In this document: one piece after another, positions 55,201 through 58,200 of the stretch
How the letters are laid out: each line of letters begins with the position of its first letter
How positions within the stretch are numbered: position 1 is the stretch's first letter
Source: an uncultured bacterium
GTDB taxonomy: Bacteria; Patescibacteriota; Minisyncoccia; UBA6257; 2-01-FULL-56-20
Direction of reading: 5' to 3'
Length of the DNA: 64,000 bases
NCBI GenBank assembly: GCA_963844965.1
Contig: CAWJQC010000008.1
Span: 32,001 to 96,000 of the forward strand
Program-made: the position numbers

Positions 55201-58200
55201 GCCTTCAACAATTTTGAATTTTCAATTTTCAATTTTGCACTGGCAGGCCAATCGTGCAGGTGCACGGAATTTTTATAACCGAAGCTTTCGTGTAAATATT
55301 CCGCAAAGAACGGCATGAACGGTGCGGTCAACTTGGTTGTTTCACGCAAAACAAATCCCAATGTCGCCGAAGCCACCTTGAAATCCGCCTGACTTTGGGG
55401 CTTTTGCAGTCGCCTCCGCGAACGTCTTATATACCAGCGCGACAGGTCATCAACGAATTTTTCTATCGAAAGCGCCGCCTCGCGAATTTCATATCTGTCA
55501 AGATTTTTCGTTACACTAGCGACGGTTTGGTTGAGGCGCACAAGGATCCAATTATCCAAAACGTTTTTACTCGCCGTCGGCAGCTTTCCAACTTTAGCCG
55601 CTGACTCCGCATACGTCCGATAGAATACGAATGAATTCCAAAGAAGGAGGTGGAAGCGGCGATATGCCTTAAGAATTTCTGCCTCGTCAAAACTTTTCGG
55701 CTCGCCCAGGGGGGTTACGGTATAAAAATACCAACGCACCGCATCGATTCCGTATTTCCGTATTACTTCCCAAGGATCAACCACATTACCCCTGGATTTA
55801 GCCATTTTCTGCCCGTTCTTGTCGTTTATAAGCCCGAGCGATACAACATTCTTATATGGCGATTCGTGCCCCAAGGCGGTCGCGATGGCAAGCAACGTGT
55901 AAAACCAGCCGCGCGTCTGGTCCATCCCTTCGGCGATGTAATCGGCTGGATAATCCAAACCACGAGGCACGTATCCCACAACACGACCAACTTTTGTGTT
56001 GCGTGTCACGTGCTTTGTGCTTTGTGCGAACGGATAGTGAGCCTGAGCGAACGGCATCGCCCCCGAGTCGTACCACACGTCGGCAACTTCCTTCACCCGT
56101 GAAATTCTCTTGCCGCATCTGGGGCATTTTATGGAAATCATGTCGGCGTAGGGGCGGTGCAGGTCAACCTCGCCGGTGTCGTTCCTCGGAATTATCTTCA
56201 GTTCCAATTTGTGGCACTCCGCAGGCGCGACGAAATCGCTTCCACGGCTCACTTTTTCCACGACCGCTTTCTTTTCGCTCCAGCCAAGCGCTACCTGGTT
56301 CAGCATCCAAACCGGATATTCGTGCGTTACTAAAAGTATGTTCCTGCCCTTGTACTTTTTTTCCAGGTCCCGCAGCAGATCCCAGAGGCGCACGCGGAGA
56401 TCACGCAACGATTCGCCCCCTTCCGGCCCTTTTTCAAATCTTTCCGCATGCGTAGGGAAAAGTTCCCTGTACCTACCTTCGGGCTGCCCCTCCAGTACAC
56501 CCATATTTATCTCATGGAGCCGCCTGTCAAAAATAATCTTCTCCACACCAAGCGTCCGCGCGACAATCCTTGCGGTTTCTTGCGTTCTCAGAATATCGGA
56601 GGCGATAACCAAATTCATTTTATTTCCGGTCTCCTCAAGCGCATCCTTAAGTTTTTTGGCCGATTCTTCAGCCTCACTCTTGCCTTGCGGCGTAAGGTGA
56701 TACTCGCCCCGACCGCTGTCTATCACGTGAGCAAGAAGCGTCTCGGAAAATCCGTGGCGCATCACCCAATAATTATTTTTCGGGCCGCCGGCCAACCGAT
56801 CCAGTTCATCCAAACCGCCCACGACTTCCACATTCCCGCAACTTTTGCATTCCCAGATCGGCAACGGCGTTCCCCAATAACGCTCGCGGGAAAGATTCCA
56901 GTCCTTAACTTCTCTCAGCCACTCGCCGAAGCGACCGTCTTTTAGATGCTCCGGAACCCAGTTGATTTTTTTATTGTTTGCGAGGAGTTTATCGCGCAAC
57001 TTGCCCATGGCGATGAACCAAGAACTGCGCGCGTAATAAAGCACCGGCGTTTCGCAGCGCCAGCAATAAGGATATTCGTGCGTGTAATTTTCTATTTTGA
57101 AAAGATTGCCGTTCTTGCGGAGATGTTCAAAAATTTTCTCGTCTGTTTCTTCGGTTTTGACTGGCAAGCCACCAAGTTCCGGCACGTCGCGCGTGAATTT
57201 TCCTTCCTCATCAACAGTGTGCTTCTGCGGCAAGCCCACCTTAACGCCCAACCGGTAATCGTCTTCGCCGTACATAACGGCGGTATGCACAACGCCAGTT
57301 CCCTCGTCGGTCGCCACGAAATCCGCGGCGTAAACTTTATACGCGGCGGGGGTGCGGAGCGGCTTTATTTCAAACAGCGGCTTATAGTTCAGGCCAACCA
57401 GATCTTTGCCGCTCAGAACCTCACGCACGTCGGACTCCGTCCCGAACGGATTACCCTCTTTTTTGATTATCTCCTCGGCGACAATCCAGCGCTCAATTTT
57501 GCCGCCAACCATTTTCTTCACCAAGGCGTAATTTATTTTCTCCCCGACCGCCAGTGCAACGTTTCCCGGCAACGTCCATGGCGTCGTCGTCCATGACAAA
57601 ATATAGGTATCTTCGTCCGTGTGAATATCCTCGCCGATTCTCTGTCCGCGCTTTAATCTGAATTTAAGATAAACCGACTGCTCCGTTGTTTCTTTGTAGC
57701 CCATGGCAAGTTCGTGCGAAGAAAGTGCCGTGCCACATCTCGAGCACCAAGGAACAACTTTGTGGCCCTTGTACAAAAGCCGGCGCTTCGCGATCTGCGC
57801 AATCGTCCACCACAACGTTTCAATATATTCCGGATCGTAGGTAACGTAAGCGTCTCTAAGGTCAAGCCAGTAACCGATGCGGCGCGTCATTTCTTCCCAC
57901 TCATCCTTATGAAGCCAAACCTGCTCCTTCGCTTTTTTATTGAAAGCCGCGATGCCGAATTTTTCTATGTCTTTTTTGGATTTCAAGCCGAGCGCTTTTT
58001 CGGTGGCCATCTCCACCGGCAAGCCGTGTGTGTCCCAGCCGGCGCGGCGCGGCACAAAATAGCCGCGCATGGATTTGTAGCGCAAAATGATGTCCTTAAC
58101 TATCCGCGCGAGAATATGATGAATTCCCGGCTTGCCGTTCGCATAAGGAGGGCCTTCGTAAAACACGAATTTCCGCTTGCCACGCCGCTCGGCAAGCGTC

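Follow-up and report, generated by a model that had tools for sequence, protein, structure and literature searches.

The 64,000-nucleotide stretch of DNA analysed here (the window) carries an ileS gene for a type-2 (T. thermophilus-like) isoleucyl-tRNA synthetase (IleRS), with other synthetase genes as neighbours (Table 1). The encoded protein, identical to database protein P0009, scored 841 bits against the IleRS equivalog model (cutoff 621), and its best PDB matches were 1ILE and 8C8W. It has both class I motifs (PGIHHILAR, of the HIGH type, and KMAKS), the Pfam domains Anticodon_1 and DUF5915, and a CP1 editing domain that matches isolated CP1 structures (1WK8) and whose signature residues are invariant (WTTTPWTLPGN, H331 and D340 in P0009 numbering). 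The database gene call starts at an ATG that we checked in the sequence (58275-58277), inside one uninterrupted minus-strand open reading frame (ORF; 54714..58427) that contains CKSCGNVEVVGGLDEL, YWVMRHGFSE, LLVTHEYP and DLHRPYAD. Two numberings are in use; residues below are those of the ORF unless P0009 is named. An IS481-type transposase is found ~300 bp downstream of ileS. Across 80 GTDB species loci, the neighbours seen were ArgRS, SmpB, TrpRS, RecO and GlyRS, and no kinase, pyrophosphatase or other partner in phosphate metabolism was conserved among them.

Table 1 Features of the ileS locus in window coordinates
Feature	Position	Strand	Remarks
ileS, type-2 (T. thermophilus-like) IleRS with embedded phosphatase	54714..58277	-	1187 aa plus stop; TIGR00392
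Embedded branch-1 histidine phosphatase domain	56181..56783	-	ORF residues 549-749; P0009 residues 499-699
RHG motif R557-H558-G559, nucleophilic His and first phosphate-pocket Arg	56751..56759	-	Predicted; codons checked
R614, second phosphate-pocket Arg (SDxxR motif)	56586..56588	-	120/120 close and 34/34 divergent copies
E639, predicted general acid/base	56511..56513	-	Aligns with Glu of PhoE 'RLREIHLG' (1H2E); Glu in 118/120, Asp in 2
H702, second catalytic His (VTHEYP)	56322..56324	-	Predicted; conserved in 120/120
Zinc knuckle, first half C527-x-x-C530, just before insert	56838..56849	-	C477 and C480 (P0009) invariant or 99% conserved; aligns with T. thermophilus 'CQAC'
Zinc knuckle, second half C768-P-R-C771, just after insert	56115..56126	-	C718 and C721 (P0009) invariant
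KMSKS-loop motif, reads KMAKS	55794..55808	-	KMSKS in 118/120 homologues, KMAKS in 2
argS (arginyl-tRNA synthetase), conserved upstream neighbour	59948..61672	-	50/80 GTDB loci have an ArgRS-like ORF on the upstream side
trpS (tryptophanyl-tRNA synthetase), conserved convergent downstream neighbour	52067..53272	+	From translation; opposite-strand TrpRS-like ORF downstream in 39/80 loci

The sequence-only reading of this DNA had proposed that about 190 extra residues (56200-56780) embed a PGAM-like histidine-phosphatase domain in IleRS. A profile scan bore this out: Pfam His_Phos_1 (PF00300) matched ORF residues 554-719 (window 56271-56768; E=6.5e-28) with 98.2 bits in context and 102.5 bits for the domain alone, well above the Pfam gathering threshold of 21.7, and this match cuts that of tRNA-synt_1 in two. 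Compared with T. thermophilus IleRS (1ILE), ~206 residues stand in place of the 6-residue loop between residues 481 and 488, so the proposed size and limits were essentially right. Within the Rossmann fold of IleRS, the insert sits at the tip of the second Cys4 zinc knuckle, in the connective peptide between the active-site motifs PLPIW and DVWYDSG. The segment C768-P-R-C771 aligns with 'ELAC-ACGG' of the T. thermophilus enzyme, an alignment in which the placement of the second knuckle Cys is ambiguous. The insert is predicted to fold independently. The full-length model reached a pTM of 0.82, with pLDDT of 93-97 over the insert and its linkers. In this model the phosphatase domain is confidently placed, rigidly attached and close to the catalytic core.

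The embedded domain has the alpha/beta fold of the histidine phosphatase superfamily and the residues that define its branch 1, namely the RHG motif, a second Arg, a second His and an acidic proton donor. The histidines of YWVMRHGFSE and LLVTHEYP, which had been singled out from the sequence, correspond to the invariant catalytic pair H558 and H702 (each in 120/120 close homologues). The Arg and His of the RHG motif are kept in all 120 close homologues and in 33 of 34 divergent embedded copies, and R557, H558, R614, E639, E672, R680 and H702 show little or no variation across the 120 close and ~34 divergent copies. In the window copy, which reads RHGFSETLL, the Glu that commonly follows RHG and the pocket Asn are missing. 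Residues of the substrate 'cap' are not strongly kept across the family, and therefore point to no particular substrate. Together, the domain is apparently a small-molecule-type branch-1 histidine phosphatase with a competent active site, an activity predicted from these residues. A new hydrolytic activity, one of the possibilities raised at the outset, is thus a reasonable reading.

We compared the domain with known members of the superfamily. Models of cofactor-dependent phosphoglycerate mutase (dPGM) all scored the window protein below cutoff (TIGR01258, 17.5 versus 81.7; NF038349 dPGM_arch, 64 versus 225; PRK01295, 37.7 versus 316). In dPGM (E. coli GpmA), the substrate-binding residues beside the catalytic Glu and the second His read E-R-x-Y(-G) and H-G-N; the window instead has E-I-N-M(-G) and H-E-Y, and the family consensus is E-I-x-L and H-E-Y. 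These scores and the missing mutase-specific residues speak against membership in the phosphoglycerate mutases. The window protein also fell short of the equivalog models for the phosphohistidine phosphatase SixA (TIGR00249), the alpha-ribazole phosphatase CobC (TIGR03162; 60.3 versus 162.9) and the phosphoserine phosphatase PspA (NF045917; 45.7 versus 350). The domain resembles small-molecule branch-1 phosphatases, including Geobacillus PhoE (1H2E/1EBB), the Hydrogenobacter phosphoserine phosphatase iPSP1 (4IJ5), mycobacterial glucosyl-3-phosphoglycerate phosphatase GpgP (4QIH/6S2Q), the riboflavin-pathway HFP (9MMH) and CobC (6E4B), but identity to these is only 20-24% and none of their NCBIfam equivalog cutoffs was reached. 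Moreover, these five enzymes are free-standing, whereas the window phosphatase is inserted into an aminoacyl-tRNA synthetase (aaRS) and its relatives are coupled to one in an operon.

Class Ia synthetases carry well-known connective-peptide modules, such as the CP1 editing domain, CP2/CP3 and the leucine-specific domain of LeuRS. Like these, the phosphatase is a folded module in a surface loop of the Rossmann fold that leaves the catalytic domain undisturbed; however, those modules function in tRNA binding or editing and none is recognisable as an enzyme from a different superfamily, whereas the phosphatase is complete, has its own active site and also occurs as a separate gene. NCBIfam model NF040702 (isoleucine--tRNA ligase, N-acetyltransferase domain-containing) describes another curated IleRS with an added enzyme domain, there a GNAT, showing that IleRS tolerates such additions; the window protein scored 313.9 bits against its cutoff of 1999 and had no acetyltransferase Pfam match, and we found no paper on this GNAT-IleRS in the literature searched. 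Histidine phosphatases are also fused to nucleic-acid or nucleotide enzymes, in the mycobacterial Rv2228c-type RNase H/acid phosphatase (NF005567; window protein 81 versus a cutoff of 326), the Nudix-phosphatase MutT1 (9CXX/3FJY) and TFIIIC tau55 (2YN0), but those are terminal fusions to non-aaRS partners rather than an internal insertion in an aaRS.

A survey of related IleRS proteins found the insert at the same site in 120/120 of the closest homologues, drawn from NCBI, ENA, JGI and Logan. It is likewise present in 80 GTDB species loci of Parcubacteria/Paceibacteria, of which 68 have a complete ORF of 1100 aa or more. The GTDB genome scan used a closer alignment of the insert whose pattern is specific to one subclade, and its figure of 87 is therefore not a census. 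Among the best cluster representatives at 50% identity, 91 of the 149 that were classified are IleRS-flanked. A search with the insert plus its flanks had first suggested that the embedded domain is rare, which full-length and exhaustive searches corrected. The embedded phosphatase is thus a conserved lineage feature of much of Parcubacteria. Mean pairwise identity of the insert (0.51) is like that of the C-terminal domain (0.50), the ratio of insert to body identity is 0.85-0.93 within the window's own subclade, and by these measures the insert is under purifying selection. Its GC and GC3 (0.515 and 0.584) are close to those of the rest of the gene (0.504 and 0.591), and at E<=0.01 Pfam matched only aaRS domains and His_Phos_1, with no intein or endonuclease domain. 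In a few relatives the reading frame is broken close to the insert, by frameshifts or an in-frame stop. The homologue survey rules out a misassembly or chimera; the Pfam result, host-like composition and clade-wide rather than patchy distribution rule out an intein or selfish element; and the invariant catalytic residues and subclade identity ratio rule out a decaying pseudo-enzyme, despite the missing Glu and Asn near RHG.

The closest stand-alone relatives of the domain (~190 aa) are encoded between argS and an ileS that lacks the insert, a genomic arrangement that is new here; their named hosts are Staskawiczbacteria and another Parcubacteria MAG. The stand-alone gene usually overlaps the start of ileS. 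In 56 of 80 metagenome loci ileS begins at the phosphatase stop (gaps of -1, +4 and -10 nt), with ileS within 5 kb in 9 more, and ArgRS lies directly upstream of the phosphatase in 53 of the 67 loci with room for it. The stand-alone phosphatase is thus translationally coupled to ileS in sister lineages. Some sources annotate this form as 'putative phosphoglycerate mutase' or 'PhoE'. At one locus (L165) the phosphatase is still with argS and ileS is gone, which shows that the tie to IleRS is not a strict one. In a neighbour-joining tree of the phosphatases the stand-alone genes were monophyletic (25/30 bootstraps), and in a tree of IleRS bodies built in the same way the stand-alone-type loci formed three clades on very short backbone branches.

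Other arrangements were also found. Some IleRS proteins carry 2-4 phosphatase copies, one at a second insertion site in a different loop; tandem copies also occur, and the active-site residues are kept in every copy of the multi-copy proteins. Fusions to ArgRS and to TsaC are each represented by a single 50%-identity cluster representative; simple read-through from one gene into the next accounts for the former, and the latter lies away from aaRS genes.

With middling confidence, we propose that Parcubacteria keep an active phosphatase of the small-molecule type coupled to IleRS, either as a separate gene between argS and ileS or as a zinc-knuckle domain, with a small phosphorylated compound as its putative substrate. 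In the canonical two-step reaction, His558 would attack a phosphate held by Arg557, Arg614 and His702 while Glu639 would protonate the leaving group, and the phospho-histidine would then be hydrolysed, so that phosphate would be removed from that compound. The proteins to which the phosphatase is fused, namely IleRS (at two sites), ArgRS and TsaC, are all adenylate-forming tRNA enzymes that convert ATP to AMP and PPi, and we therefore guess that its substrate is a by-product or inhibitor of nucleotide type that these reactions share. Our best guess is AMP, PPi or a nucleoside di- or polyphosphate, and nothing isoleucine-specific. We further hypothesized, tentatively, that adenylate-forming tRNA enzymes of Parcubacteria have a true functional partner in the phosphatase. 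It would be a detachable 'subunit', present on its own, joined to ArgRS or TsaC, or carried by IleRS in 1-4 copies at one or two sites, and it may remove a phosphorylated by-product or inhibitor from the synthetase (AMP, nucleoside polyphosphates or PPi) or mend a phosphorylated tRNA or synthetase. No phosphomonoesterase is known to take part in the biochemistry of aminoacylation.

It is also possible, though less likely, that the domain is a housekeeping enzyme with an unrelated metabolic job, as a divergent phosphoglycerate mutase/phosphatase or a phosphoserine or sugar-phosphate phosphatase, which came into IleRS through gene adjacency in a compact genome, where fusion secures co-expression with no bearing on tRNA charging. 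The closest structures are indeed metabolic small-molecule phosphatases, the argS-phosphatase-ileS order offers a trivial route to fusion, the phosphatase persists beside argS where ileS is absent from the locus, and the mutase or PhoE names given to some stand-alone forms fit such a job. Phosphoglycerate mutase also went undetected in several shallow Parcubacteria clades, where it may be too divergent (Jaffe et al. 2020, PMC7304191). The mutase scores far below cutoff (TIGR01258 and dPGM_arch) and the E-I-N-M-G and H-E-Y residues argue against the mutase version, however, and an accident of neighbourhood fits less well with insertion in two IleRS loops, 2-4 copies and an independent TsaC fusion away from aaRS genes.

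Action on a macromolecule is improbable. Here the domain would be a built-in repair enzyme for a tRNA 3'-phosphate or another phosphorylated end that blocks charging, or for a phosphoprotein, for example IleRS modified on its KMSKS loop by a HipA-like kinase toxin. Consistent with this, every protein that the domain is fused to binds tRNA-related substrates or acts on them, the superfamily includes protein phosphatases (SixA, PGAM5 and Sts) that were matched here at lower scores, and the modelled domain sits rigidly near the catalytic core. Less probable still is an editing-related or adenylate-clearing module that hydrolyses misactivated Val-AMP or mischarged tRNA, a role the sequence-only reading had entertained. 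The connective-peptide position between the two active-site motifs would suit it, but an editing role is unlikely because CP1 is present and intact with its signature motifs, because the chemistry of the fold is phosphomonoester hydrolysis, and because the module is also found on its own and joined to ArgRS and TsaC, neither of which edits. The last alternative, an artefact or selfish element (a chimeric assembly, an intein-like or mobile in-frame insertion, as had also been suggested, or a decaying non-catalytic spacer), might draw on the nearby transposase and the few disrupted relatives but is scarcely credible against the shared architecture of 120/120 homologues and 80 species genomes, the host-gene composition, the purifying selection, the invariant catalytic residues and the lack of intein or endonuclease matches. 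We therefore take the embedded phosphatase to be no mobile element, and unlikely to be an editing module.

Aminoacyl-tRNA synthetases are among the most conserved enzymes, and, to our knowledge, new catalytic domains in the Rossmann core of bacterial synthetases are essentially limited to editing modules. In agreement with the initial impression that this insertion had not been described, we found no account of a histidine phosphatase-IleRS fusion in the literature searched. The feature is hidden by automated annotation, which calls the proteins 'class I tRNA ligase family protein' or simply 'isoleucyl-tRNA synthetase'. The finding places a complete enzyme of an unrelated superfamily inside the catalytic domain of an essential synthetase, in a very large group with few cultured members (Parcubacteria). 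The zinc-knuckle tip tolerates insertion and offers a place at which class Ia synthetases could be engineered, and the split and fused pair is a 'Rosetta stone' signal of a functional link that has apparently gone unexamined so far. If the phosphatase is a functional partner of these tRNA enzymes, aminoacylation in a major bacterial lineage would include an extra, previously unknown catalytic step; if it is a metabolic enzyme carried along by gene adjacency, it may reveal a 'missing' metabolic enzyme of reduced genomes inside a housekeeping gene.

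Profile searches identified the product of the ileS-bearing ORF as isoleucyl-tRNA synthetase (IleRS; TIGR00392, 841 bits vs. a cutoff of 621), and among solved structures it was nearest to 1ILE (Thermus thermophilus) and 8C8W (Priestia), both of them type-2 enzymes. The sequence-only reading had proposed a histidine phosphatase embedded in this enzyme, citing four motif strings. All four were found in the ORF, confirming the observation, and His_Phos_1 (PF00300) matched residues 554-719 (ORF numbering; E=6.5e-28), dividing the Pfam tRNA-synt_1 match in two. Alignment to 1ILE revealed that ~206 residues stand in place of a six-residue loop (1ILE residues 481-488), which places the insert between the CxxC halves (C527/C530 and C768/C771) of the second Cys4 zinc knuckle; along the protein, it follows the conserved PLPIW strand and precedes the DVWYDSG adenylate-site motif. 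The GC and GC3 of the insert are those of the remaining ileS. Elsewhere in the enzyme, the class I signature loop reads KMAKS, not KMSKS (KMAKS occurs in only 2 of 120 homologues), and a variable loop of ~20 residues (STKHVTRNTKVGRVVGYVPRGL) that follows the AQAHYPF motif, without counterpart in T. thermophilus IleRS, is the sole long low-confidence stretch of the IleRS model (pLDDT 40-46).

Features of the window and of retrieved loci (L numbers; P numbers are database proteins)
Feature	Location	Strand	Remarks
RNase J ORF	50620-51516	+	begins inside beta-CASP domain, profile position 37
IS481-type transposase	53293-54420	-	rve / rve_3 integrase core and HTH domains; between trpS and ileS 3' end
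ileS-bearing ORF	54714..58427	-	single uninterrupted ORF
KMAKS loop	55794-55808	-	
Variable loop	55962-56021	-	
Embedded phosphatase	56181-56783	-	
RHGFSETLL motif	56733-56759	-	
ileS start	ATG at 58277	-	database-supported; product 1187 aa, identical to P0009
280-aa ORF	58378-59220	+	with next ORF, fills 1.6 kb between argS and ileS
136-aa ORF	59480-59890	-	
ORF directly upstream of argS	61784-62581	-	borderline PP2C_2 protein-phosphatase match, 23.8 bits vs. cutoff 24
In-frame stop, GTDB genome	L052 10823-10825		just past insert
Toxin-like ORF	L087 6878-7153		after phosphatase gene
Toxin-like ORF	L119 1334-1609		after phosphatase gene
P0252	L165 6001-8070		ArgRS with phosphatase at C-terminus; ileS absent from locus
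P0217	L166 977-2140		TsaC/Sua5 (t6A synthesis) with C-terminal phosphatase; locus without aaRS genes

As modelled, the insert is a self-contained domain with a predicted rigid attachment to IleRS. AlphaFold2 supported independent folding when given the insert alone (pLDDT 94.3, pTM 0.91), and in its model of the whole protein (pLDDT 87, pTM 0.82) confidence was highest over the insert and its two linkers (93-97). The domain also recurs in related IleRS proteins: PF00300 was present in 120 of the 120 best full-length homologues (57-100% identity), which came from NCBI, ENA, JGI and Logan assemblies and, where named, were labelled 'Patescibacteria', 'Paceibacterota', 'Parcubacteria' or 'Liptonbacteria'. 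Scanning a single genome for each GTDB species yielded 80 loci, labelled among others Liptonbacteria, Yanofskybacteria, Jorgensenbacteria, Niyogibacteria, Yonathbacteria, Nomurabacteria, Sungbacteria, Minisyncoccia and Paceibacter; in 68 of these the ORF with the domain is complete and at least 1100 aa long, a contig end truncates 11, and an in-frame stop interrupts one. The insert alone also served as query in an exhaustive search without profiles, and IleRS flanks were present in 91 of the 149 classified best 50%-identity representatives. Recurrence among the homologues and GTDB species loci excludes misassembly. Because of the single in-frame stop, that IleRS is read as two ORFs of 785 and 450 aa that share one frame; two database fragments (P0001 and P0003) look like parts of an IleRS with the insert that was broken by a frameshift. 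Such cases may reflect either sequencing errors or genuine disruption.

The catalytic set (R557-H558 of the RHG motif, R614, E639 and H702, plus E672 and R680) was invariant or nearly so in the 120 close homologues, and among 34 embedded copies that are more divergent, 33 retain it. Mean pairwise identity was 0.51 for the insert vs. 0.68-0.72 for the catalytic core and 0.50 for the C-terminal domain (i.e., the insert diverges faster than the core, at a rate like that of the C-terminal domain), while the insert/body conservation ratio was 0.85-0.93 in the window's subclade vs. 0.75-0.80 generally. On sequence grounds, the catalytic set and subclade ratio indicate a working enzyme instead of a spacer. 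The window copy, in common with its four closest relatives, reads RHGFSETLL, without the usual Glu after RHG (present in 100/120 homologues) and without the pocket Asn (73/120); even so, the insert stays well conserved relative to the body within this subclade. In canonical catalysis, His558 would be the nucleophile, Arg557, Arg614 and His702 would form the phosphate pocket, and Glu639 would be the proton donor. Together, these results establish that IleRS is coupled to a histidine-phosphatase domain that is conserved and autonomous and whose predicted active site is intact.

The insert belongs to the histidine phosphatase superfamily, but to no characterised subfamily. Its nearest solved sequences were PhoE and the Hydrogenobacter phosphoserine phosphatase, and in fold comparison protein phosphatases fell below the best matches (SixA 15.8, PGAM5 14.5, Sts 14.1). 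The window protein reached none of the NCBIfam equivalog cutoffs for dPGM, CobC, PspA, SixA and GpmB. Cofactor-dependent mutases (dPGM) are defined by E-R-x-Y and H-G-N residues, in place of which the window protein has E-I-N-M and H-E-Y.

Within one bacterial class, the same phosphatase has two kinds of link to ileS, as a translationally coupled neighbour or as an internal IleRS domain. The nearest stand-alone relatives (~190 aa, 31-45% identical to the insert) start MKLNNKYYILRHG, many have a GELRKLN-like tail, and their source names are Candidatus Staskawiczbacteria and other Parcubacteria. Their gene is flanked immediately by argS on one side and, on the other, by an ileS that lacks the insert and encodes 936-1018 aa (the single further complete ORF, of 436 aa, is an outlier), and both forms share the synteny L20-L35-IF3 / SmpB / ArgRS / IleRS / RecO / GlyRS. 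Among 80 metagenome loci retrieved using an alignment of the stand-alone family, ileS starts at the phosphatase stop codon in 56 (typical gaps -1, +4 and -10 nt) and, in a further 9, is no more than 5 kb away on the same strand; 7 are cut by a contig end, and in 8 ileS was not seen within the sequence available. Where the locus left room for it (67 loci), ArgRS immediately preceded the phosphatase in 53. In two split-form loci (L087 and L119), a small ORF that by eye is RelE/YafQ-like follows the phosphatase gene, and ileS was not seen in their available sequence.

Relatives have argS immediately next to either ileS or the stand-alone phosphatase gene; the two ORFs that separate argS from ileS in the window had no Pfam match. 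A methyltransferase gene and then FolD lie beyond the ORF upstream of argS, so the SmpB-argS synteny of relatives is not preserved here. trpS is nearer to ileS in relatives than in the window, and local GC in the transposase region is 0.54-0.58 vs. ~0.45-0.50 in its surroundings. The RNase J gene may be truncated or disrupted, since it starts within the beta-CASP domain and the metallo-beta-lactamase N-terminal part was not found in ORFs just upstream.

Some IleRS proteins carry several phosphatases. P0269 carries two tandem copies at the knuckle site; P0187, truncated by a contig end, carries four in tandem; in P0255 and P0231, one copy occupies the knuckle site and another the loop that separates the catalytic/stem-contact region from the anticodon-binding domain. 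Every copy in these proteins retains the catalytic residues, and knuckle cysteines are lost in some of the four. Fusions to ArgRS and TsaC were each found as one cluster representative; the ArgRS-fused domain is closest to stand-alone genes and the TsaC-fused domain to an embedded copy.

In a neighbour-joining tree of the phosphatase, the 46 stand-alone genes grouped together (25/30 bootstraps) and a second clade comprised most embedded copies; in the IleRS-body tree, split forms fell into three clades on very short internal branches. One or a few transitions between the forms are likely. A plausible route from split to embedded would be tandem duplication of phosphatase-ileS, followed by a deletion joining ileS(N)-phosphatase-ileS(C) at a permissive loop.

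What the domain does is best captured by an active small-molecule-type phosphatase functionally coupled to IleRS and other adenylate-forming tRNA enzymes, a reading to which we give an even chance. That a housekeeping metabolic phosphatase hitch-hiked into the neighbouring ileS seems rather unlikely: the closest structural relatives of the insert favour this, as does retention of the phosphatase with argS where ileS is elsewhere, and it agrees with a published observation (PMC7304191) that PGM went undetected in some Parcubacteria, but as a PGM the window domain failed the mutase tests. A macromolecular repair phosphatase is improbable. The editing-related activity floated by the sequence-only reading is unlikely because CP1 is present with invariant signature residues, the histidine-phosphatase fold hydrolyses phosphomonoesters, and the module is also found as a free protein and attached to partners that do not edit; editing and artefact, even taken jointly, merit very little credence.

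Neither a histidine phosphatase in or beside IleRS nor the GNAT-containing IleRS listed by NCBIfam was described in any paper found by full-text literature searches. Public names are 'isoleucyl-tRNA synthetase' or 'class I tRNA ligase family protein' for the embedded form and 'PhoE' or 'histidine phosphatase family protein' for the free form. Both component families are already known; the architecture, its breadth and the split/fused relationship are new, and the architecture is of real interest to synthetase and Patescibacteria specialists.
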